From: Eledone cirrhosa
Lineage: Eukaryota
NCBI GenBank assembly: GCA_964016885.1
Contig: OZ024751.1
Coordinates: forward strand, 17,236,001 to 17,300,000
DNA: 64,000 nucleotides
Direction of reading: 5' to 3'
In this document: piece after piece, positions 26,044 through 52,114 of the stretch
Position numbering within the stretch: the first letter of the stretch is position 1
How the letters are laid out: every line of letters starts with the position of its first letter
Program-made: the position numbers and the translations under genes
Notes under the pieces: generated by a model
Database searches by the model: none
Seen by the model: only the letters and a program-made list of their open reading frames with translations
What the model was told of the DNA's origin: nothing

Positions 26044-26158
26044 ATATATTATTAAGTGTAAGGAATTCTTTTACAATGGAATTGCAATATATATACAGAT
26101 GTGTTGGTATCTGTGTTTCATCATATATATTAGTTTATATTGATATATATATGTATAT

Positions 26159-26343
26159 ATTGATACAAGGAAGATTAATCGTTTTAAAAGGTATCTATAT
26201 TTAAAGTTCTAGTTAAACTTTAATTAGTTACCTACCTAGCTGTGTGTGCTTACACACTTTTACAAATTATTCCCTGTGATTGTTTCATATGTTTATTTTA
26301 GATATATATATATATGTATGTCAATCAATTTCTCGTTGATATA

Positions 26344-26408
<65 letters not shown>

Positions 26409-26811
26409 GTGGTTACACAACAGTTAGTTCACCATACCGAGAACAATTGTTTCACCTTAGTGGATCCTCAACTCGTAATGGACATGTTTATACGGAACAG
26501 GTATGGTGAACTAACTGTTGTGTAACCACTTCTACCTAACTCGTCCCATGGACTGGGTGCTCTACCACTACGGATATTACCTTCCAGTGTCCTACCACTA
26601 TATATATATATATATATATATAAATATATATAAACGAGAAATTGATTGACATACATATATATATATATCTAAAATAAACATATGAAACAATCACAGGGAA
26701 TAATTTGTAAAAGTGTGTAAACGCACACAGCTAGGTAGGTAACTAATTAAAGTTTAACTAGAACTTTAAATATAGATAGCTTTTAAAATGATTAATCTTC
26801 CTTGTATCAAT
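26159..26811. repeat. Nested inverted repeats: outer ~190-bp arms (26159-26348 and 26622-26811), inner 35-bp arms (26404-26438 and 26500-26534)
   Basis: The arms read directly as reverse complements and are separated by (TA)n tracts. Confidence 0.92.
26438..26475 (-). ncRNA. Minimal type I hammerhead (C3->U) in the loop of the inner inverted repeat
   Basis: Minus strand: CGAG-TTGAGGA-TCC ACTAA GGT-GAAA-CAATTG-TT-CTCG, with palindromic stem III. Confidence 0.6.
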
Positions 26812-27126
26812 CGATCGATAAATCACCGGTGACTACGACCTGTATACACGACGCTGGTCTGTGTTTTTGCTGTTGTTGTTTATAGATGGTCGTCAACTAA
26901 ATGTATACCCCATTCCCCTCAGAGCACCTTGTGTTCCTTCAACTGTCTACTGGGTTTTGGTTACACACGGTTCTTCATTCCTTTCGTCTTTTTTCAGTGA
27001 TAGCTTTTTCTAACCATTCAAGGAACTCATATGTATGCTGGGCGCACATACATTAGGATGTGTGTTTTCCTGCCAGCGGCATGTCAAATATATCGTGGGC
27101 AAATATATCGGCATGTCATATATATA

Positions 27127-28783
27127 ATGAGGTTCTTTTTACAAAATGAAAAATAACCAAGGTGTCCTACACGAGTGAAAGTATAAGGAAAGAAGATGAA
27201 ATCGAAAATGCAACTGGAGTCTTATTTTTAAAAAAATATATATATTTATTTGGTTCCTTTACCGGTTTCGCAGTTCTTCTGCTTTTCAAAAGTAGAATTG
27301 AGATGGAGGGTCTGTGGTTTTTCTTACATCTGGTTGGTCTTTGATTGTTACTTGTTTTATATGGAAAAAAAAGTGGCTCGAAATGCCAGGTTTTTAGAAA
27401 GGTAATTTGCTTGGTTGGTGAATAAGTATAATAAATTTCGCCGCGCCAGTTCGCGTTACAAAGCTCTTCAAACAAAAGGGGGGGGGGGGGCGCTCAGGTT
27501 ATTTTTTTCATATATGAGTGAAGTTTGTTTGGTTGATGCAGCCACGTGAATAAGTGAATAAGCACATCAGCTTTCGCGCCAGATTGTGTTTGAATTTCTT
27601 TTTACTTAAAAAACGGGGTAGCTCACGAAGGCTCCTCTCTTTAATAAATGTAATTTGATTGGTTATAAATGAAACTATGACTGTAACGTGAACAAGTACA
27701 TTAAATTTCGCGCCCGTATTTGGGAATTTATTTTGCCTTTTAAAGAATTTTGTGCCAAACAAAAGATAATGGACAAGAAATATGGGATGGGGAGAATTGT
27801 TCTGGTTCAGTGAATATGGCTGGTGCGCTGGGTTGTCAGAATTCAGACTTTCTATTGAAATAAAGAAAGTAGAGATATGTAAGTTTATTTGTGTGCTTCC
27901 GCGTGTGTGCGCGTGTGTGTGTAGGAAGATGATTCTATTAGTAGAAATGGGGGAGGGAGTTTTGTCTGTGTGTATGGGTGTTATGTGTGTGTGTATGTGT
28001 GAGTGGGAGTATGGTTAGAATGTTAAGATGGAGAGGTTATATATATATACTGTGTGTGTGTATGTGTTATGTGTGTGTGTATGTGTGTGTGTATGTGTGT
28101 GTGGGAGTATGGTTAGCATGTTAAGATGGAGAGGCATATTTCTTTTTGTGTGTGTGTGTGTGTGTAGAAATGGGGGAGAGAGTTATGTGTGTGTGTGTGC
28201 TGGGGGCGGGGGGCGGTTAGCATGTTAAGGTGTTAGAGTATTAACGTATGTTAAGGTTTATTTAGTTCTGGTTTTTATTTTCTAAAGTAGAAGGTGTTAT
28301 GTGTGTGTATATGTATGTGTCTGTTTGGATGGTTAGCATGTTATGGTGTTGACATAATGTATATTAAACTATATTTAATGCTGGTCTATGTTTTTGAATA
28401 GACATATTTTCCTTATTTATTCGTATTTGTTCTGTTGTATTGTCAACGCAAAATGTGTGTCTTATTACTTGTGCATATGTCTAGATGTGCACTTAGTGGT
28501 ATCTGTCTCATGGTTGGATCTCGTAATTGTTGGCGATGAGCTGTCATCTATTTCTGAGGGTGAGTTTAGTTTGTCCTATATAATCTTCATTGCATCCTTT
28601 ACATTCAATGGCATAAAGTAGATGTTTTGATGAGCAAGTGAAGTGATTTTTTACAGCAACATTTTGTGCTGATTTAAATGTATACGTGTTGCCTTCAATG
28701 AGGTGAGTGCAGGTTGCGCAATTAGAGCGACCACATTTTTTGACAGTTGGTTGTGGGTTTGTAGTAGGTAATTTGGCATTAGT
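27127..28783 (-). mobile_element. 5'-truncated Penelope-like element (Neptune-type): GIY-YIG end plus 3' region (family D)
   Basis: A GIY-YIG remnant is followed on the minus strand by a CA-rich spacer, a decayed hammerhead at 27794-27844 (GAATT-CTGACAA...GAAC...AATTC) and ~770 bp that recurs at 33285-34065. Microsatellite flanks. Confidence 0.75.
28364..28783 (-). pseudogene. GIY-YIG endonuclease of a Penelope-like element, frameshifted
   Basis: Manual translation: TNAKLPTTNPQPTVKKCGRSNCATCTHLIEGNTYTFKSAQNVAVKNHFTCSSKHLLYAIECKGCNEDYIGQTKLTLRNR / MTAHRQQLRDPTMRQIPLSAHLDIC / ...EQIRINKENMSIQKHRPALNIV*. It shows a Cys motif, LLY-YIG, R..HR and E..I...P.LN. Confidence 0.88.
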
Positions 28784-29415
28784 GTGTATGTGTATATATA
28801 TATATATGTGTGTGTGTGTCTGTGTATGTGTGTATGTGTGCGTGTGTGTATGTGTATGTCTATATGTATGTGTGTATATATATGTATATTCTTGTTAAAG
28901 TGGCTTTTTATTCAAATATAAAATAGATTGTGTATACCGTAAGTGTGAATACGTGCGTGTGTAACATTGACGTGTGCTCCCTTACTTTCATGTTTTTCTC
29001 TCCTTTATTGCGAGCAACATATAATATAATTAGAGTTTAATAAATCAAATATAGTATGCTAGAATATACTGCATATCACTTCCAGCGACAGGTGATGTAA
29101 AGCTGGCTTTAATTATTGAAGTCTTTCAGTTTCAATATAATTAAATAGTACAGGATTCCTTTGATATTGTACTTGATATTCTTCATCGTTGTAGAACAGG
29201 ATGCACCATTATATATATATATATATATACATATATATATGTGTGTGTGTGTGTGTGTACGGTAATTATTGATGCACTTCATTTCAAGCACACGACGTAT
29301 ATTTTCCATATAGGAAAAAAGGGTATATTTAGAATAAGAAAATGCGAAGTTTCAGATGTTAACGTTGATAATGCTATGATATACATTTCAATGTCGAAAG
29401 TGGCCACATGATTCC

Positions 29416-29589: not shown

Positions 29590-29667
<78 letters not shown>

Positions 29668-29668
<1 letters not shown>

Positions 29669-30005
29669 TTCGTTTCTGAATTTAATTAGCAACACTCTTT
29701 ATCTGAAAACGTGTGTTGAAACCGATATTGTTATGCTTTGGGAGGGTCATGTCGCCAATAAGAAACACACGCACCAGTAACTTTCACTCCAATTTATTAT
29801 AAATTAAATTCATAAATTTAAGAATTTATAAATTTCCGGTTGGTTGGTTGGTTGGTTGGTTCCCCAACCGGACGGTTGTTCATATATTGTCAAAGTTCTT
29901 TCGTCACACATTCTGTGACATTTTCAGTAACTGGGGATTCTTTTCTTTGTTTTGTGCCTCTCCTTTGTTCTGTCCTACGCCATCTTGTATATTTCATGAA
30001 CGTAT
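29668..30005 (-). mobile_element. Family A (TA)n-embedded element with a decayed hammerhead at 29888-29932
   Basis: Shares TATTGTTATRCTTTGGGAGGGTCATG...CACACGCAC...(GGTT)n with 32948-33280 and 36861-37008. Minus strand: AGTTA-CTGAAAA-TGTCACA GAATG TGTGAC-GAAA-GAAC-TT-TGAC. Confidence 0.7.
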
Positions 30006-30020
30006 GCAAAGTATATATAT

Positions 30021-32947: not shown

Positions 32948-32948
<1 letters not shown>

Positions 32949-33280
32949 AATTCGTTTTTGAATTTGTTTTGCGAGATTTCTTATCTGAAAACGTGTTTTT
33001 GAAACAGATATTGTTATACTTTGGGAGGGTCATGTTGCCTATAAAAACACACGCACATGTCGCTTTTCACTTCAATTCATTATAAATTCCCGGTTGGTTG
33101 GTTGGTTGGTGCGATAACCTAGTCACTGAGGAGGTCACACGAAAGAGCTTTGACTATATATAAACAACCATCCGGATATCAAACCAACCAACCAGCCAAC
33201 CGGAAATTTATAATAAATTGAAATGAAAATGAACAGGTGCGTGTGTTTTTATTGGCAACATGACCCTCCCAAAGTATATA
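32948..33280. mobile_element. Family A element: ~95-bp inverted arms (33017-33110 and 33182-33278) enclosing a hammerhead
   Basis: The arms are reverse complements (TATACTTTGGGAGGGTCATGTTGCC... and ...GGCAACATGACCCTCCCAAAGTATA). TA flanks. Confidence 0.8.
33120..33156 (+). ncRNA. Minimal type I hammerhead (37 nt) with collapsed stem II
   Basis: TAGTCA-CTGAGGA-GGTCACAC-GAAA-GAGC-TT-TGACTA, with a 6-bp stem I. The paralogue at 29888 keeps the full stem II. Confidence 0.65.
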
Positions 33281-33284
33281 TATA

Positions 33285-34065
33285 AGGAAATAAGGTTTTT
33301 TTTTATGAAAAAAAAAGAGATGTCCTACACGAGTGAAAGTATAAGGAAAAAAGATGAAATCGAAAATGCAACTGGAGTGTTTTTAAGAATATTTATTTGT
33401 TTCCTTTACAGGTTTCACAGTTATTATGCTTTTCAAAAGTAGAATTGAGATGGAGGGTTTGTGGTTTTCCTCGCATCTGGTTGGTGTTCGAAGATTACTT
33501 CTGTTTTATGTGGAGAAAAGTGGCTCGAAATACTAGGTTTTTTAGAAAAGCAATTTGGTTGGTTGATGACTGTCATATGAATAAGTATAATAAATTTCAA
33601 GCCAGTTCGCGTTACAAAGTTCTTATTCTATTTGCCTTTAAGAAAGTGGGGCTCAGATTGTTTTTTCGTATATGAGTGAAATTGATTGATGCAGTCACAT
33701 GAATAAGCACATCAACTTTCGCGCCAGTTCGTGTTTGAGTGTTCTTTAGTGTCATTTTCACTTAAAAAAGTGGCTCAAAAATGTTGTTTTTTTTATAAAT
33801 GTAATTTGATTAGTTATGACTGTCTTGTGATTAAGTGCATAAAATTTCGCTCCAGTTCGTATTTGGGGGTTCTTTGTAGCCGTTTTCACATTCTGATGTT
33901 TGTCAGGAAGAGCTTGTTGTCAAACAAAAGATAATGGTCAATAAAAGAGGGATGGAGAGAATTGATCTGGTTCAGTGATTATGGCTGATATGCTGAGTGA
34001 CAAAATTCAGACTTTCTATTGGAATAAAACAAATAGAGATATATATTTTTATTTGTGTGCTGATG
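33285..34065 (-). mobile_element. Family D: second copy of the PLE 3' region
   Basis: Colinear homology with 27127-27900, from GTCCTACACGAGTGAAAGTATAAGG to AATTCAGACTTTCTATTG. Confidence 0.8.
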
Positions 34066-34565
34066 TGTGTGTGTGTACAGACATGTACTTCAATAAGAAG
34101 TCTTTGAACTATATACAAGTATAGATACTTTTATATCCCTGACATTTCAAAGCATCCAGAAGCTGATACTTATATGTATGTTATTCGAATAATGAGATAA
34201 CATTTTCGTGTCTTGTGTAAGCTTAGAAGAGCCCTACCCCTCTCCAGATAGGAACAGTATTAACTTCTTGCAGATGTGGAGCTCAAGAGAATGAGAAAAA
34301 AGAAACAATTAACTCCAATACTCGATTGGTAATTTTCTATCGACTATGTGAAGATTAAAAAGCAAAGTTGACCTTTGCAAGATTTAAAAGGCCATGCTAT
34401 AAACCTATGAAGTTCCCTTCTAGTGAAAATCCGCAGTGCTCTTGTTGGGGAGTAATCTGAAATATACATTCGTTGAACAACCGCTGTGCAGTAAGAAAAA
34501 TTAGCTACGGAAATATTAAAATAGAAGTTTCTAAACTAAAACAAATGCCATCAAAAATTATCTTG

Positions 34566-34781: not shown

Positions 34782-35341
34782 AATGACAAATTGTAAAACA
34801 ACTGCAGAAATCTAATAAACATATATACGTAGATGAGGGTCTGTCCCGTACACAAGAGGGTACATTTCGTTCAGACATCGTGACAAATAAAATACTTAGG
34901 AATAGTAATTTCGAAATCTACAGCTTTTCTAATGAGGCGAATTCATCAACCTGTAATTTGAGGCCTACCTGATTATTATGTGATATGTCTTATAGGTGAG
35001 CTCTGATGAAAAATTGGGATTTCTAGCTAAGAAACTGAGCTACTACGGCCGTTTCAAAATGAGATCTATAAGTGAAATAGTAAATATATGAAATCTTTAC
35101 GGTTATCGCTACTTAAATATGGGGCTTTGATTGTTTTTGTGAAGAATTCAAATAAAACAAGCAAACGAATATATCTATATTGTTACTTACTTAGCTAGTT
35201 TATGAGTTAGATTGGTACCTACCTATCCAGTTTCGATAAATGCACACATACACAAATACATAAATACATACTTATATATATATTCATACATGTAACAATA
35301 AGTCTTGAATGTATAAATACATATACATACAAACACAAACA

Positions 35342-36600: not shown

Positions 36601-36658
36601 ACTGCTATATATATATTTCGATGATACCCATTGAATGGCTATGACCTCGTCAGGCAGT
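36601..36658 (-). ncRNA. Type I hammerhead ribozyme (PLE-type) with intact core
   Basis: Minus strand: ACTGC-CTGACGA-GGTCATAGCCAT TCA ATGGGTATCATC-GAAA-TATATATA-TA-GCAGT. AATAAA follows 1 nt downstream and TATATAA lies ~10 nt upstream. Confidence 0.8.
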
Positions 36659-36860
36659 TAGTCAGACCTTATATATACCAGCTCAGTGTTTATAGCGTTG
36701 ATGGTATCAGAGCCTTGGGACATATGAGCTTGTTAGGAATAATTTAATGTTGTCAGCAGGAATAGTCTTGATTCTCATTGTTCAGTTTGTAGATGGTAGT
36801 AGGGTTGGTATTTGACCTCAAACGATATACATATCTATATATATGTATATATATATATAT

Positions 36861-37002
36861 ATCGTTTCTGAATTTGTTTAGCAAGATTCTTCATCTGAAA
36901 ACGTGTGTTCAAACCGATATTGTTATACTTTGGGAGGGTCATGTTGCCAATAAGAAACTGGTGCGTGTGTTTCTTATTGGCAATATGAGCCTCCCAAAGT
37001 AT

Positions 37003-37008
<6 letters not shown>
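36861..37008. mobile_element. Family A terminal fragment with a 41-bp fold-back hairpin
   Basis: TATTGTTATACTTTGGGAGGGTCATGTTGCCAATAAGAAAC, loop, GTTTCTTATTGGCAATATGAGCCTCCCAAAGTATAACAATA. Confidence 0.8.
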
Positions 37009-38225: not shown

Positions 38226-40165
38226 GACATGCGCAATCCCGACCAGGTCCATACACGACAACCTCCACCTAATGCGATTCATCATTGAGAAGATAGGGTG
38301 TAAACCCGGCTTCGGTGGGGCCCTGCTCAACTTGGATCTGTTTAAGGCTTTCCATAGGGTTGACCATCGTTACATGGATGCGGTGCTTGAAGCGGCAGGC
38401 TTCGGACCCGTGTTCAGGGGCTGGATTGCTGCAATGCACAACAGCAACATCTGCTCAAGGGTCAAGGTGAACGGCTTCCTCTCGGAGCCGTTCCATATCA
38501 CGCGATCCATCCGACAGGGATACCCTCTCTCCTCCCTTCTGTACGTACTGACTCTCGAGCCACTACTGCGGAAGTTGGAGCTATTGCAGGACATCCCATT
38601 AGAACCGGGACTGCGGAAAGTGGCGTCGGCCTATGCCGACAACTTGACAGTAATGGTGTCGAGCACCTCGCAAATCGAGGAGTTCGGCACCTTACTGAAG
38701 GCATACAAAAGGTTCACAGGAGCGATGCTGAACCGAGACAAGTCCGTCGGTTTGCAACTAGGATCGTGGAGAGGCAACTGGAACGAGGTGACGGCCAAGG
38801 TGTTTGCGCTCACCCAGAAGTGGGCCGAGTGCAAACTATCCTTGAAAGGTAGAGCAGAGGAGGCGTACACTTTTATAGCGTCCGTCATCTACTACCGCTT
38901 GACTGACGTGCCTTTTCCAGCCAAAACGCTCACCAAAATGGAGCGCGCGCTCTTTCAATTCCTTTGGAAGAAACGGGCTCCTTTGGTGAGAAGATCTATC
39001 TGCTGCAAAAACCCTTCCAACGGAGGCCTGGGGATGCCTTTGCTCACGAGGCACAAACGCGCGCTCAGGCTGCAGCATCACTACATATTCCTCACCAGAC
39101 AACCGGTGTGGGCCCCGTTCGTGAGGCGAGCCTTCCCACGAGTCGTTTCGCTGACCGAGTTGCAGTCCTGGGTCAAGCAAAGACCGAGGAAAATGGGCGA
39201 CTGGCACATCGAATCTGCTCAGACGCTCACAGCCCTCTGGCAGGCGGACCCGGCAATCAGTAGAGACTCCACTTTGTCATTCTATAGAGGGTTGATCCGC
39301 AGCAAGTGCGACCACGCGCTCGGAGAAACTCCGGGCGTAGAGGAAGACGAACTGGCAAGTCTGTTAGGTAGGACCTTCTGCCCAGGAACGCTGGACAACT
39401 TTCAAAAGTCCCTGGACTCGCAGTGCTACGAGGAGCTCAACCAGTTCGAGACAACTCTACAGACATGGCCGCCCTAGCAGGGAACCTTCGAAAAAGATCT
39501 GTCCGTGATGCGTGCGAGACGAAGAACCCGTCGCGCACGCATTCGTACACTGCCCGGGCTTTACCGACCTGTGGGGCTATGTTGAACGACTATTGTCGCG
39601 GGTGGGACCAATCCGGTTGACCACCGAGTGCATGGTCATGATCAAACCGCCACCCCTCTTCAAAAACGAAAGGAGAGGCGGTTTTCCTTTGTGTGATAGC
39701 TATGGCGAAAGAGGTACTATGGTGGACGAGGTTAAAAGGGCTGAGCTCAGACACTTTTCTCTCAGGCCAGCAACTGATTCTTTTTTACAAATACCACTTT
39801 GGAAGAAGAATCAGGATGGAGAGAGAGGTGCTGTACCCCAGCAAGTTTTATGAAAGGTGGGTGAAAGTGGCGAGAATGGCCCGAGTGAATGGGCCTTCTC
39901 TCTATATCAGCCTGTAGGTTGAGGAAAAAGAGGAAGAGAGGAAAGGGGTACTCACTCTTTGTACTCCTGGAGATGAGGGTTGCACATTTTTTTCTGGAGG
40001 GGGGGGTATATTTTACCCATATGTAATGTCTACCTTTATTTGGGAAAATTCGATTAATCTTTAAATTGCATTTGTGATTGTATTTTACACATTTTTATTG
40101 TATGTAAACTTCCCCCTTTGTATTTGTCCCCTTCTTTTGTTCCCCTGTGGCTAATAAAGAAACAT
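38226..40165 (+). mobile_element. 5'-truncated Tx1/L1-clade LINE (RT, zinc knuckle, 3' UTR), decayed
   Basis: ORF 38272-39477 has LDLFKAFHRVDH, SIRQGYPLSSLLY, AYADNL (YADD mutated) and LSLKGRA. Frameshifted E...HAFVHC follows. It ends AATAAAG plus a TCTA-rich tract. Confidence 0.9.
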
Positions 40166-40319
40166 ATCTTTCTATCATGCACCCATCTATCTATATATCT
40201 ATCATTCATCTATCTATCTCTCAGTCATCTATCTTTCTATCATCCATTTATCTATCTATCTATTCATATAACTATCTATATATCTACCTATTCATATCCT
40301 TAATTATCTATTTATCTAT

Positions 40320-42535
40320 GGGCATGGACGCCGAGATCACAGCCACTGAGGTACGGGACGCTCTGTGCCGCTGCGGGAAACGGAAATCACTCGGTCTAGA
40401 TGGTCTACTCTATGAGTTTTACATAGGCATGCCGGATTTGTTCTCTGGCGTCCTCGAAGCCGTCTGCTGAAACTGGTAACAGAACGGGAGAATTCCCAGT
40501 TCTGCAGGCAGGGGCGTAGTAACGCTGATCAGGAAAGACGAGAACAAGGGGGCCGAAATAAGCAACTTTAGGCCCATAACTCTGCTCAACATAGAATTAA
40601 AGATTTTGGCCTATGTGTTGGCAACGAGGCTGACGCTTGTCGTCGAGAACACGGTAGGGAAAGCGCAGACGTGTGCAATCCCGACCAGGTACATACAAGA
40701 CAAGCTCCACCTCATGCGATGCATCATCGAGAGGATAGGGTGTAAACCCGGCTTCGGTGGGGCTCTGATCAATTTAGATCAGTCTAAGGTGATCGATAGG
40801 ATCGACCATCGATATTTGGAAGCGGTTCTCAAGGCGGCCGGTTTCGGAGCCGTCTTCAAAGGCTGGATCGCTGCAATGCACACCAACATCTTCTCGGCGG
40901 TCAAGGTGAACAGCTACCTATCGGAGCCGTTCGGAATCACGCGTTCCATCCGACATGGATGCCTACTCTCCTCCATTCTGTACGTTGGGAGTCTAGACCC
41001 ACTAGCTCCTGCATGGCATCCCGTTGGAACCGGGACTCCTGAAAGCGGCGGCGGCCTATGCCGACGACGTGACAGTAATGGTGTCGGAAACCTCGGAAAT
41101 CGGGGCGAACGGTAACTAACTGCAGGGATACGAAAGGCACACAGGAGCAAAACTGGATCCGGACAAGTCTGTCGGTTTGCAACTCGGAACATGGAGAGGG
41201 AAACCGATGCCGTCCGACAGCGTCGTCGGACGCGGGACGGAAGGACCGGTGAAATTGCTCGGGGTCTGGTTCGGTCCGGACCTCCAGGTGGAGAAAAACT
41301 GGAACAAGGTCACGGCCAAGCTATATGCGGTCACCCAGAAGTGGGCAGAGTGCAAACTATCCTTGAAAGGTCGAGCGGTGTTGGCGAAAGCTTTCGTAGC
41401 GTCCGTCATCTACTACCGCTTGACCGTCGTGCCTTGTCCTCGTGAACACCTCACCAAGATAGAGCGCTTGCTCTTCCAGTTCCTTTGGAAGAAGCAGGCT
41501 CCACTGGTGAGGAGATCCGTCTGCTGTCGTCAGCACCCTTCCAACGGAGGGCTGGGAATGCCGTGGCTGATGTGGCGCAAACATGCGCTGAGGCTACGGC
41601 ATCTCCAGGTATTCCTCAACGACCCCCAACCGGTGTGAGCACCGTTTGTGAGACAAACGTTCCGGCAACTTGTCTCGCTGACGGAGCTGCAGTCCTGGGT
41701 CAAGCGCAGACCGAAGAAGATAGGCGTCTCACACATTGAATGCGCTCATGCCCACAGTCCTCTGTCAATAGGGCACGGCAATCAGTGGAGACTCCACTTC
41801 GACATTCTATAGAGGGTTAGTACGTCACAAGGGCGACGACGTGCTCGGAGAGACTCTGGGCGTCGAAGACGACGAGCTCACATGTCTGTTTGGTAGGACT
41901 TTGCGCCCGGGACCTATGGACAACTTCCAGAGGTCCCTTCCTTGGCAGTGCTACCGAGAAACTCTACCAGTTCGAGACAAGATTTACAGGCACGGACGCC
42001 CCGGCAGGGATCCTTCCAAGAGGACGTGTCCAAGATGCGAGCAGGAAATTGAAACCGTCTTGCACGCAATTATACACTGCCCGGGCGTAAATGACCTGTG
42101 AAACTACGCAGATAACTGCGTAAGGGCTAAATCCAGTTGACTGCCGCCAAACCCCCATCCTATTTCAAAAGCGAAAGGGAGGCGATTTTCCTATGTATAG
42201 TGGCTATGGTGAAAGAGGTTATATGGTGGATGAGATTGAGAGGACTGAGGACAGATGCCTTTCTCTCCGGACAACTCCTCATTCCCTTCTTTAGGTACCA
42301 TTTTAGAAGTAGAATCAGAGTGGAGATTGAGGCACTGCATCCCAGTAAATTTACTGAAATTTACTGTTCTATCAATGGGGTATTAAACAAACCATTTGTG
42401 GCGCCTCCGCTATTCGGGATTTCGATTGTTAAATTTGTTTGCTTCAATTTTTTACACGACTGTATGTAAAATCCTCGGCATGTGTCCTTGCATTATCCCC
42501 TTTTCTTGTGCGCCCTTGTGGCAAATAAAGAGATC
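40320..42535 (+). mobile_element. Second Tx1/L1-clade LINE copy (RT domain 0 to 3' end) with several frameshifts
   Basis: KSLGLDGLLYEFY, NFRPITLLN, LDQSKVIDRIDH, TATGCCGACGAC (YADD), VKLLGVWFG and CPRCEQEIETVLHAIIHC. TCTA tracts on both sides. Confidence 0.9.
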
Positions 42536-42575
42536 TATCTATATCTCTATGTATCTATCTGTCTATCTATCTATC

Positions 42576-43105
42576 CGGCCAACAACTGATTCTTTTTTTC
42601 AAATACCACTTTGGAAGAAGAATCAGGATGGAGAGAGAGGTGCTGTACCCCAGCAAGTTTTATGAAAGGTGGGTGAAAGTGGCGAGAATGGCCCGAGTGA
42701 ATGGGCCTTCTCTCTATATCAGCCTGTAGGTTGAGGAAAAGGAGGAGGAGAGGAAATGAGTACATTCGTACTCCTGGAGATGAGGGTTGCACATTTTCTC
42801 GGGGGTATGTGTTAAATATATAAACTGTCTCCCTCTATTGGGGAAAATCGACTAACTTTTTAAATTGCATTTGTGATAACATTTTACACGTTTTTATTGT
42901 ATGTAAACTACCCCCTTTGTATTTGTCCCCTTCTTTTGTGCCCCTGTGCCTAATAAAGTAGCATATCTATCTAGCTATCTATCTATCTATCATTGTTAAT
43001 TTTATATTTGTTATTTGTTTTCTTTACTGGCCTTTTTGTGTAACCCCCCCCCCCCCTTGTATTTCTCCCCTTCTTTTGCGCCCTAGTGGCAATAAATAGA
43101 AATCT
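42576..43105 (+). mobile_element. Two further short Tx1 3'-end copies (42576-42963 and ~43035-43105), each followed by (TCTA)n
   Basis: 42576-42963 is near-identical to 39765-40160. Both end CCCTTCTTTTG..CCC..GTG.C.AATAAA. Confidence 0.85.
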
Positions 43106-43225
43106 ATCTATGTATCTAAAGAAAGATATCTATCTATCGATCTATTCATATAACTATCTATATATACATACCTATTCATATCTGTAATTATCTATTTATC
43201 TATATCTCTATGTATCTATCTCTCC

Positions 43226-43262
<37 letters not shown>

Positions 43263-44998: not shown

Positions 44999-45079
<81 letters not shown>

Positions 45080-45104
45080 TCTAATAAACAACATAAGGCA
45101 ATTA

Positions 45105-45165
45105 TTTCATTTACCAGTGGTTTCTTAAAAGCAAACAAATGTTGCTTTCAATCATCAGAATGAAA
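45105..45165 (-). ncRNA. Type I hammerhead ribozyme, left arm of the palindrome
   Basis: Minus strand: TTTCATT-CTGATGA-TTGAAAGC AACATTTGTTT GCTTTTAA-GAAA-CC ACT GG-TA-AATGAAA. Confidence 0.82.
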
Positions 45166-45258
45166 AAATCCTGGTGTATTTATTGGCATTGGATTTTAAA
45201 AACCATTGGATTTTAAAAGCTTTTTTAAAATCCAATGCCAATAAATACACCAGGATTT

Positions 45259-45319
45259 TTTCATTCTGATGATTGAAAGCAAAATTTGTTCGCTTTTAAG
45301 AAACCACTGGTAAATGAAA
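45259..45319 (+). ncRNA. Type I hammerhead ribozyme, right arm of the palindrome
   Basis: TTTCATT(45259-65), CTGATGA(45266-72), 8-bp stem II TTGAAAGC/GCTTTTAA, GAAA(45300-03), CCACTGG, TA, AATGAAA. GUA cleavage site. Confidence 0.82.
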
Positions 45320-47182
45320 TAATTGCATTATGTTGTTTATTACATAACTATTAAGCTCTGTTACCTACATAGAGCACTCTTTTTTCCTGGACCTTTCCGA
45401 CGGAATTACTTCATTCACACACACACATATATATATATGTTATGTGTATGTGTGTGTGTTGGAGTTACATCGGTTTCACAGGTTCTAGTTTCTCGAACAA
45501 CGGAACTTCCTGCTCGTGAAATTAACGTGCACGTGACTAAGCATTCCACAGTCACGTGTACTTTTAACGTCCATATTTGGGAGAATCAGCAGGACACAAT
45601 GGACGACAAGCCTGTCCCATTTGAATTACAGGCATCATAGAAATACATTTCTGGATTTCAGATTCAGCTGCATTTGAGGTTAAATTGAAAGAAAAATAGC
45701 AAAATTTCCTTTATTTTCTAATTTGAAACAGGTTTAAAAAAAATACGATGTATTTGATAAAATCTTCCTAACAGATGAAGTTTAATCAGAAAAATAGATT
45801 TGAATAAAAAAAAAAATTTCTATAGTGCTCCAGCATTTCTATCATGGTAGTGCTCTATCTATATGTTACTAACAGTCTGTTATTGCTTGCTTGCTAGTAT
45901 GTAATGTAATACACCCAAAAGGGCGCATAATGGGAAAATACTTTGAAATGAAGTTGCCCCTGAAATGGGAATACAAATGAAATAAAACAAGTTATGCGTA
46001 AATCGGACACCGGGTCCCGAGTTATGGGGTTTTTCCGGGTACCTTCATAAACAAAGAGAGAGAAAGATAGAGAGGAAGAGATGGTGGTTGTGAGAGAGTA
46101 GATTGAAAGAGAGACTAGAGAGAGAATGGAAGGGAGAGAGAGCTGGTGCTGATGTTGTGTATATATATATATATGTGAGTGTGTGTATATATATATATAT
46201 ATATGTTTGTGTGAGTGTATGACCAGTGCATATAGATCACAGACACCCACATATATACACACACACACATATATATATGTATAAACACACACACATATAT
46301 ATACATACACATACGTATATATATATGGGCCTTCCAGTTCCTTTTCACATTAAATACACGGCTGTGTATATTTTAATTATTTAAAAATTATTTTTAAGTG
46401 AACATGATTTTTAAAAGATATTTTGAAATGAACGTGACTCGATGGATCACAGGTGGTCTAGTATGTGATAAAACCTTCCTAACAGATGATGTTTACTCAG
46501 GAAAATAAATTTGAATAAAAAAAAAAAAGGATTATATAGAATTTAGAGGCTTGTTCCAGAATTTCTATCATTGTACTGCTCTAGAGAATGTGAAATTGTA
46601 ACAATGACAGAAACTATTGTCAACGTAGTACATGGTAATATTTGTTAATAGATGTTTTTGTTTAAGTGATCATTAGAATTTAAAGAAGGCTATATTTATT
46701 TTATTCTGTTCTTTTTTTTATAATTAGATTTACAATTTGATAATTTAATAATAATGTGCAACCTATATTTATTTATTTATTTATTATTATTTATTTTCGT
46801 TGTTCTATATGAAATCTTTTCATTGAAGATTTTTCAAATAAGGAATAGGGAAATAATCAATTGACTTAAAATGTAAAAATGTTCCTTCTGAAATAAATGC
46901 ATTCAAGTAGAAGAACATAATTATCTAACCTATGCAATATTTAATTGGCAAAATATTCGCATCAACATGTTGTAGACTTTTATCATATTACCCATGTCAG
47001 CTTAATCTATTGCCAATTCTAAACACTATATAGTAACAATAATTGAATTAGCTTCATAGGTGTTTTAGTAGCAAAACTGATGTTATTGCATTCCACTGGC
47101 ATAGAATTTGGTTACAAGTTTTCATAATAATACATTTGACCATGCGGCAAACACATCGTGTTAGATTTGTCTGGGAAATAAT

Positions 47183-48536: not shown

Positions 48537-48830
48537 TAGAGGTATTTAATTTGTTGGAAGTCCGACAAACATAAATGTTTATAACTGATTTAGAGCACTC
48601 AACAGCTTACTGGAGTAAATATTCAATGATATTAAATAAATGGAAACTATATTTATATAACCATATTTATTTTAATATATATATTTCAAGGGCAACCAAG
48701 ACAACATTGGTACGCTTTCATCAGATAAAATACAAAGTCCAGAAAACTGGTCTAGTGCTCTGAATCAGTTATAAACATTTATATTTGTTGACTTGTTGAA
48801 TTACCAACAAATTGAATATCCCGTTTGCTT
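48533..48830. mobile_element. (TA)n-embedded element with ~65-bp inverted arms (48533-48599 and 48754-48830) enclosing a hammerhead
   Basis: ATAAATGTTTATAACTGATTTAGAGCACT pairs with AGTGCTCTGAATCAGTTATAAACATTTAT. Confidence 0.75.
48668..48732 (-). ncRNA. Type I hammerhead ribozyme with intact core
   Basis: Minus strand: TATTTTAT-CTGATGA-AAGCGTACCAA TGTTGTC TTGGTTGCCCTT-GAAA-TATATA-TA-TTAAAATA. Confidence 0.72.
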
Positions 48831-48831
48831 A

Positions 48832-48867
<36 letters not shown>

Positions 48868-48871
<4 letters not shown>

Positions 48872-49055
48872 AAAAGATGAAATCGAAAATGCAGTCTTGT
48901 TTTTAAGAAAATATATATATTTAAAAAAATATATATATTTTTTTAAAATAAGACGCCAGTTGCATTTTCGATTTCATCTTTTTTTCTTTATACTTTCACT
49001 CGTGTAGGACACCTCGGTTATTTTTCATTTTGTTAAAAAAAAACCTCTCTTTCTA
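48868..49055. mobile_element. Family D PLE extreme terminus with an inverted duplication
   Basis: 48930-49050 is the reverse complement of 27130-27245. 48868-48920 is an inverted partial copy. Confidence 0.8.
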
Positions 49056-51899: not shown

Positions 51900-51956
<57 letters not shown>

Positions 51957-52114
51957 GACCAAACAAATTTATAGTGCTTATTCACCTGACATTCAACAAC
52001 TAACCAAATCACGAACGCTCTATCTCAAAATTATTTTGGAAAAGCATTTGAAAAGCGCAACCGGTAAAAAACTTAAAACTAACACTGAATACTAACCATT
52101 ACTTATTACTAAGA

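Follow-up and report, generated by a model that had tools for sequence, protein, structure and literature searches.

The broken 3´ end of a Penelope-like retrotransposon copy, likely of the Neptune group, with a predicted U3-A8 hammerhead in Eledone cirrhosa DNA

We interpret, with a good deal of confidence, positions 27126-28788 on the minus strand of a 64,000-nt stretch of Eledone cirrhosa DNA (contig OZ024751.1; the whole analysed stretch is called the window below) as the broken 3´ end of one copy of a Penelope-like retrotransposon (PLE), likely of the Neptune group. Its endonuclease (EN) is likely joined, through decayed repeats of the tail of the open reading frame (ORF), to a 3´ region with a predicted U3-A8 hammerhead and a (TA)n end. 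The class is known and the member is dead, an ordinary fossil within a repeat-rich animal genome. The copy cannot mobilise itself, because its reverse transcriptase (RT) is missing and its frame is broken twice. The window around it is AT-rich and harbors many TA and CA microsatellites and short repeats. The element is composed of the following parts:

27118-27125, no strand: terminal (TA)n on the 3´ side; in other copies ..CTTTCTAA precedes the (TA)n
27126-27909, minus strand: 3´ region without coding sequence ("family D"), in which a ~125-bp sub-repeat occurs three times and a hammerhead-like motif is found; likely a 3´ UTR or pseudo-LTR
27250-27300, minus strand: predicted type I hammerhead, U3-A8 core variant; the copy at 33k has it at the same position
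27910-28363, minus strand: spacer of decayed ORF-tail repeats interleaved with (CA)n tracts, by sequence comparison
28364-28788, minus strand: 5´-truncated C-terminal end of a Penelope-like ORF, a CX4CxxC linker followed by a GIY-YIG endonuclease with CCHH (profile match, iE 6e-39)
28783-28547, 28547-28458 and ~28450-28367, minus strand: the three frame pieces of this ORF end, with the stop at 28364-28366
28452-28457, minus strand: second frameshift, a deletion of ~23 bp in this copy that removes a conserved F-x-V-F-P-F-Y-like stretch
28546-28547, minus strand: first frameshift, a 1-bp deletion in this copy; other copies have an extra base
28574-28621, minus strand: GIY-YIG core (LLY..CKGC..YIG) with two Cys of CCHH between the triplets, from the sequence
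28709-28735, minus strand: CX4CxxC Zn-finger-like linker motif, the next conserved Cys being 24 residues on (compared by eye with Fig. S2 of PMC8557442)
28789-28882, no strand: (TA)/(CA) microsatellite at the 5´ truncation point, where other copies continue into linker-coding sequence

The single frame 28783-28547(-) reads TNAKL..CGRSNCATC..TCSSKHLLYAIECKGCNEDYIGQT..RNR. The second piece reads MTAHRQQ..SAHLDIC, after which the first frame resumes (..RINKEN..PALNIV) and runs to the stop. Across the three pieces, the residues expected of a GIY-YIG/CCHH endonuclease, among them R, H, E and N and the two His that come after the Cys pair, are found as LLY..C61xxC64..YIG, RNR, HRQQ, AHL, KEN and LN. 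The initial annotation of this DNA had described a frameshifted domain that the ORF track misses. The domain is real and was missed, as the track relies on start codons and the stop-to-stop frame 28544-28894 has no ATG; the stretch quoted there is nevertheless unbroken, the first frameshift coming only after RNR (28547).

The proposed HMMER search with the translation bore out the assignment, since the long relatives it found are Penelope-like RT proteins with a C-terminal EN. Altogether, phmmer returned 1178 proteins at E<=1e-3, of which 36 reach E<=1e-10. CxxC..Y[IVT]G occurs in 125 of the 150 matches listed from these 1178, with an upstream CX3-5CxxC in 106 of the 125; among the same 150, at least 330 residues precede CxxC..Y[IVT]G in 19 and RT follows the motif in none. 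Pfam recognized RVT_1 and/or GIY-YIG on 24 of 30 scanned matches. Among full-length relatives the nearest is P0152, which combines an RT bearing the DKG motif with a C-terminal EN and has 56% identity to the first frame piece; the EN from the window forms a supported clade with P0003 (the C-terminal part of P0152) and P0011 in an EN tree whose backbone is unresolved. The sole PDB match to the family profile was GIY-YIG endonuclease II, 2wsh. Pfam gave no match on the three frame pieces of the window, and a word-indexed protein search with the 79-aa piece yielded nothing at E<=1e-3, although the full HMMER search did find relatives. In the nearest full-length relatives RT sits upstream of EN; it is absent from this copy and from the window, where tblastn with the 150 matches and two profiles revealed no other PLE protein remnant, faint RT included. 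Two of the proteins, P0038 (956 aa, bivalve, NCBI) and P0120 (433 aa), carry the PLE linker/EN inside a HEAT-repeat protein or after leucine-rich repeats; probably these gene models are mis-joined exons, possibly they reflect exaptation.

The lesions were judged from other copies of the element in four of nine listed sequencing runs, namely contigs of runs X1, X5 and X6 and RAD-library reads of run X7, matched to the window at 80% likeness; 40 of the 158 base differences between window and other copies were displayed, and repeat-rich 27976-28213 was skipped. The extra base behind 28546 is present in 293 of 304 X7 reads, in 3386 of 3417 units of X6 depth and in X5 throughout (30.7/30.7), though in only 146 of 16970 in X1. 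At the second lesion, 567 X7 reads part from the window at 28452, and the sequence they continue into gives FQVFPFY when translated by hand (family consensus FKIFPFY); one X5 contig (record 14) shows 24 gap letters at 28452-28457. On this extra-base, loose-end and gap evidence, each frameshift is a deletion not shared by most other copies. Loose ends also occur behind 28788 in X5 and X6, one of which (X6) reads KRQPKSLK in frame by hand, so that elsewhere the element continues upstream of its truncation point here. X7 reads starting or ending at 27296-27299, 27795, 28525-28528 and 28723 were considered as ribozyme cuts and dismissed; these positions fall on AATT and are taken as RAD restriction sites.

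As judged from its sequence, the element is a PLE with C-terminal GIY-YIG for which Neptune is most likely the best label. That call had been made from a Cys motif ahead of a C-terminal GIY-YIG, said to mark the Neptune group. The call stands as the most likely one; the Cys motif alone is not diagnostic, for CX2-5CxxC is common to Neptune, Nematis and Naiad in the accessible part of Craig et al. 2021 (PMC8557442), and linker length and domain order are needed as well. In Fig. S2 of that paper, read by eye, about two dozen residues separate CxxC from the next Cys in Neptune and ~3-8 in Nematis. The gap of 24 residues in the window element thus points to an unreduced, Neptune-like linker, unlike that of Nematis. 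Neptune itself is paraphyletic in the same work. A Naiad origin with subsequent loss of RT has in its favor that Naiads (N-terminal EN, TA-targeting, cephalopod remnants) have ENs essentially indistinguishable from those of Neptune and prefer (TA)n (Craig et al., PMC8557442). It is nonetheless very improbable. The Naiad layout of N-terminal EN, CxC linker, RT and no canonical hammerhead is not matched by the window element: its EN is C-terminal, the stop following two residues past the LN motif as in C-terminal-EN relatives, and in other copies the reading frame leads upstream to KRQPKSLK, which belongs to the RT-EN linker of phmmer matches. Such a stop just past EN, together with an RT-EN linker upstream, argues against Naiad, as do the tree neighbors, which include the C-terminal part of an RT-EN protein, and the absence of canonical hammerheads from Naiads as described in that text.

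Downstream of the Neptune-type EN, the 3´ region has shorter copies in the window:

33276-34073, minus strand: a shorter, second copy limited to the 3´ region; it aligns with 27118-27909 at 73% over 852 columns
48865-49055, plus strand: third copy, last ~125 nt only (48923-49055), 48923-49047 at 92%, (TA)n on both sides
51955-52113, plus strand: distant TA-flanked relative, score 46 against a shuffle maximum of 28

The first two of these, the latter with an inverted duplication, had already been recognized as progressively shorter copies of the same 3´ end, and the alignments confirm them; the inverted duplicate (48870-48923) covers the 5´ 60 nt of the third copy at 85%. The distant relative had been missed. 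It consists of one sub-repeat unit and a decayed version of the same hammerhead region, with a SINE-like repeat inserted. The 33k copy has its 5´ end at a (CA)n tract and its 3´ end at (TA)n; all three D copies end at (TA)n, loose ends accumulate at 27128 in X1, X5 and X7, and (TA)>=4 follows EN in 7 of 22 relative loci. Thus 5´ truncation and an inverted duplicate are both seen, and there was no complete pLTR-ORF-pLTR unit among the sequences compared. An exact 23-nt D motif had 0 matches in metagenome contigs.

We regard it as highly probable that EN and D are linked in one element. The spacer provides the first indication, as 28243-28320 can be aligned with the terminal ~75 nt of the ORF (score 54). 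Contig joints connect 27943 or 27948 to 28391/28393 (one X6 contig at depth 2227 and one X1 contig at depth 18), and joints from 28429/28450 back to 28243 are found in all four runs. These suggest an ORF followed by two successive tail repeats and then by D, lacking the microsatellite expansion of this copy. The D-to-ORF-tail joints amount to one contig each, with a 36-39-letter side at 80% likeness. Moreover, depth extends beyond the boundary of the 33k copy to 27966 (75 X1 contigs), and X1 depth is alike for EN (36-61k) and mid-D (18-93k). The alternative is that two elements adjoin here: what is left of a Neptune EN (28364-28788), and a hammerhead element D, non-autonomous and independent of the former, that inserted in its (CA)n-rich tail. 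It would account for the 33k copy stopping at the same (CA)n tract where alignable D ends, for a hammerhead ~1.1 kb past the stop compared with 55-387 nt in relatives, and for the last 260 bp being ~8-10 times deeper than EN in X1; also, no contig or read in X1, X5, X6 or X7 spans from ORF to 3´ region (27976-28213 being skipped as repeat). We still find two elements rather improbable, since strand and order are as in relatives, the D edge is joined to ORF-tail-like sequence under two organism labels, once at the high X6 depth, depth is unbroken across 27890-28019 in four runs, and the spacer is made of ORF-tail repeats.

Within the 3´ region, a decayed hammerhead had been reported ~520 bp downstream of the stop, at CTGACAA 27839-27833(-). 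We abandoned this site: it fails every descriptor used, its core is absent from the 33k copy and shuffled sequences fold equally well (z -0.25). Other copies read G at 27833 on the plus strand (35152 of 35255 in X1 depth, 275 of 282 X7 reads), giving CTGACAC, which has two mismatches from CUGANGA and is thus further from the core. A plus-strand candidate at 27138/49036 (GAAA-GTA-TA) was likewise rejected, having a mismatched core, a 2-bp stem II and antisense orientation. Instead, sequence and structure matches at 27289-27260(-) and at 33436 lead us to predict a sense-strand hammerhead in the flanking repeat, as in EN+ PLEs. The motif, found along the D alignment 1075 nt beyond the stop, reads CTT-TTGAAAA-GCAG aagaa CTGC-GAAA-CCGG-TA-AAG: stem I is CTT/AAG, the core TTGAAAA (27289-27283), stem II GCAG/CTGC, followed by GAAA and the palindrome CCGG, with the predicted cut after TA at 27260/27259. 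In the 33k copy the core lies at 33436, stem II is weakened and stem III is non-palindromic. The U3-A8 core variant is known from Schistosoma Cercyon PLEs (Cervera and De la Pena 2014, PMC4209133).

The descriptor had required at least 4 bp in stem I, which was relaxed to 3 bp once the candidate had been seen. In this form it gives 5 matches in 128 kb (both window strands), and the two long copies account for 2 of these, at equal position. When the 791-bp region was shuffled 3000 times, 20 shuffles contained any match and 6 reached an equal score. In the lowest-energy fold of the monomer, stem II forms and the hammerhead does not (z -1.06; 24 of 200 shuffles are as good). Rfam reports no hammerhead over the window, only low-complexity miRNA-type matches, and a sequence-only RNA model recovered just the three window motifs used to build it. 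The internal ~125-bp sub-repeats contain no strong hammerhead match.

Related elements speak for the prediction. Among 45 related loci, this descriptor matches 14 times in sense and 0 times in antisense orientation; one of the sense matches (L008:3379, of U3-A8 type and inside an ORF) is probably due to chance. In 8 of the 22 loci with a complete EN end a hammerhead is present 55-387 nt downstream in sense orientation; the other 14 have no downstream match, some of their contigs ending within ~100-200 nt. The core is of U3-A8 type in four of the eight (L012:2979, L019:1790, L018:3245 and L024:2271), and helix III of L012 and L019 is an 8-nt palindrome. The four are two sister pairs on the EN tree and hence not four independent cases. 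When positions 3 and 8 are left free, 14 of 15 strong sense matches pair C-G (9) or U-A (5), compared with 198 of 1004 background sites.

The motif at 27289-27260 might be a non-functional relic or a chance match in AT-rich sequence, as its short stem I and weak fold, the frequency of TTGANAA in AT-rich DNA, the descriptor adjusted after the fact and the decay of the 33k and 52k copies would suggest. We think this unlikely. The position is kept in both long copies, the G10.1-C11.1 pair and palindromic CCGG are as in minimal hammerheads of PLEs, shuffles rarely reach the score, positions 3 and 8 covary between U-A and C-G in relatives, and none of the 40 displayed base differences changes the core.

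The window contains further hammerhead-bearing islands, and the initial annotation had viewed the truncation series as the explanation of how short TA-flanked ribozyme islands arise from a protein-coding parent. This is not borne out for the other islands of the window. The islands at 29.9k, 33.1k, 35.0k, 36.65k, 45.2k and 48.7k show no similarity to the element above shuffles, and their hammerheads (hammerhead-like motifs at 29927, 33126, 36653 and 45158/45266, core matches at 35003 and 48724) have or derive from a C3-G8 core. Because they share no element sequence, the element could be their parent by analogy only; the islands may resemble the ends of other PLE families. The accompanying suggestion that the series points to the class of mobilising enzyme survives for family D and its copies, for which this would be a Penelope-like EN, and goes beyond what is shown as to the parentage of the other islands.

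Several of these neighbors merit description in their own right. A near-perfect fold-back at 45073-45351 (130-nt arms, 97%) lies between long (TA)n and unique sequence, and each arm has a strong type I hammerhead, 45158(-) and 45266(+), with C3-G8, a 7-bp stem I and an 8-10-bp stem II. By their sequence, these would be the best-formed ribozyme candidates of the window, unrelated to the Neptune element. Another TA-flanked family (29662-30011, 32948-33278, 36860-37006) forms fold-backs and has a hammerhead with a GAAA-GAGC-TT stem III (29927-, 33126+); its 33k hammerhead island lies immediately next to the 33k D copy, at the 3´ end of the latter. At 36606-36670 and 48675-48730(-), hammerhead-like sequences have GAAA and then (TA)n, stem III and the cut site being formed by the TA repeat. 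Possibly the target microsatellite completes the ribozyme there, or stem III has expanded. An inverted repeat at 26147-26823, 300 bp from the 3´ end of the element and with no similarity to it, has 225-nt arms (96%) around a TA-flanked 190-bp core with a short inverted repeat of its own. Three broken, partly tandem copies of a GC-rich non-LTR reverse transcriptase occupy 38227-43262 (Pfam RVT_1 E 5e-15, 1e-8), which by its look we take to be an L1/Tx1-type LINE and not a PLE. Finally, a ~190-bp SINE-like repeat, presumably akin to an octopus SINE, is present in more than 10 copies, 85-95% alike and often beside TA islands:

5437, 7425, 11752, 13264, 13638, 14408, 16612, 32732, 43810, 52120, 53180 and others: ~190-bp SINE-like repeat

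Based on known PLE biology (PMC11167929, PMC8557442), we infer the following course of events for the Neptune-type element. An intact RT-EN protein, encoded elsewhere in the genome, would bind the element RNA, its GIY-YIG domain would nick AT-rich or (TA)n DNA, and reverse transcription would be primed from the RNA 3´ region. Where copying stopped early, a series of 5´-truncated tails would result, of 1.66 kb for the present copy, 0.8 kb for that at 33k and 0.13 kb for that at 49k. The inverted 5´ duplicate of the 49k copy might arise when freshly made cDNA folds back on itself. The hammerhead may trim a tandem precursor RNA; because stem I has 3 bp and stem III is palindromic, cleavage would be expected only as a dimer or with protein help. 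The third copy lacks the hammerhead, since its first nucleotide lies ~8-9 nt 3´ to the predicted cut. Its start could reflect a ribozyme-cut template, though it is one copy only and begins at an (AT)n tract.

A more speculative proposal, which we put forward tentatively as one that may well turn out wrong, is that the last ~200-260 bp (hammerhead and terminus) constitute a self-standing TA-flanked non-autonomous family, about tenfold over its parent, for whose movement the Neptune enzyme would act in trans. Its U3-A8 core would escape C3-G8-only screens, and U3-A8 would have arisen several times in this PLE group. X1 depth is 350-760k over 27110-27369 and 36-61k on EN (~8-10 times), contig depth being no copy number. 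Further, at 27331 the element gives way to (TA)n and mixed flanks in 244 X7 reads, X7 being a restriction-site library biased by a cut at 27297, and 22 X6 contigs depart from the element at 27320; the short-copy excess is not clear in X5 and X6. The U3-A8 carriers, that is the window element, L012/L019 and L018/L024, lie apart on the EN tree, its backbone being unresolved.

Taken alone, the remnant is of little importance, being a dead copy of a known retrotransposon class. PLE 5´ truncation, inverted 5´ copies, TA targeting, hammerheads in PLE repeats and PLE-derived retrozymes have all been published already, and octopus repeat annotation includes Penelope-like elements as a class (PMC13282606). 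A search of openly accessible literature text gave nothing on this family, nor on U3-A8 hammerheads of Neptune elements. In practice, one short TA-flanked repeat family is tied to a Neptune-type RT-EN parent and can be annotated as PLE-derived. Since U3-A8 occurs in half of the downstream hammerheads of Neptune-type relatives, screens restricted to CUGANGA would undercount PLE ribozymes.

Comparison with known systems places the element close to Neptune PLEs as presented in the accessible text of PMC8557442, with which it shares the C-terminal GIY-YIG with CCHH, the CX2-5CxxC linker with its ~24-residue gap, 5´ truncation, an inverted 5´ copy, microsatellite bias and a hammerhead in the 3´ repeat. 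It differs from them in a ~1.24-kb 3´ region with ORF-tail repeats and a ~125-bp sub-repeat, in the predicted U3-A8 core in place of C3-G8, and in this copy being without RT. The predicted ribozyme resembles the minimal metazoan PLE hammerheads (PMC4209133) in being of type I with a short stem I, a G10.1-C11.1 pair, a small palindromic helix III and a U3-A8 core, and in the occurrence of scattered single motifs from truncated PLEs; its stem II has 4 bp instead of 7-8, and there is no unpaired base before stem II. Moreover, its U3-A8 sits in a Neptune-type element, whereas the available text of that paper reports this core for Schistosoma only. Poseidon PAc of Anolis (PMC11167929) offers a similar model, in which RT-EN nicks AT-rich DNA and reverse-transcribes its own RNA. 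As described there, PAc differs in being without a CX2-5CxxC linker and in a C3-G8 hammerhead that overlaps the ORF start; this hammerhead is protein-assisted and its cleavage is unneeded for insertion in vitro. Non-LTR retrozymes, whose origin from PLE repeats is argued by Li, Clavereau and Pollet 2026 (bioRxiv 10.64898/2026.07.22.740005), are alike in being short, non-coding, hammerhead-bearing and related to PLE pseudo-LTRs, and their monomers are common according to the same text. Retrozymes are tandem repeats with a hammerhead per unit (type I in at least 2 consecutive units), whereas the D copies are single, of unequal length and have one motif per copy.
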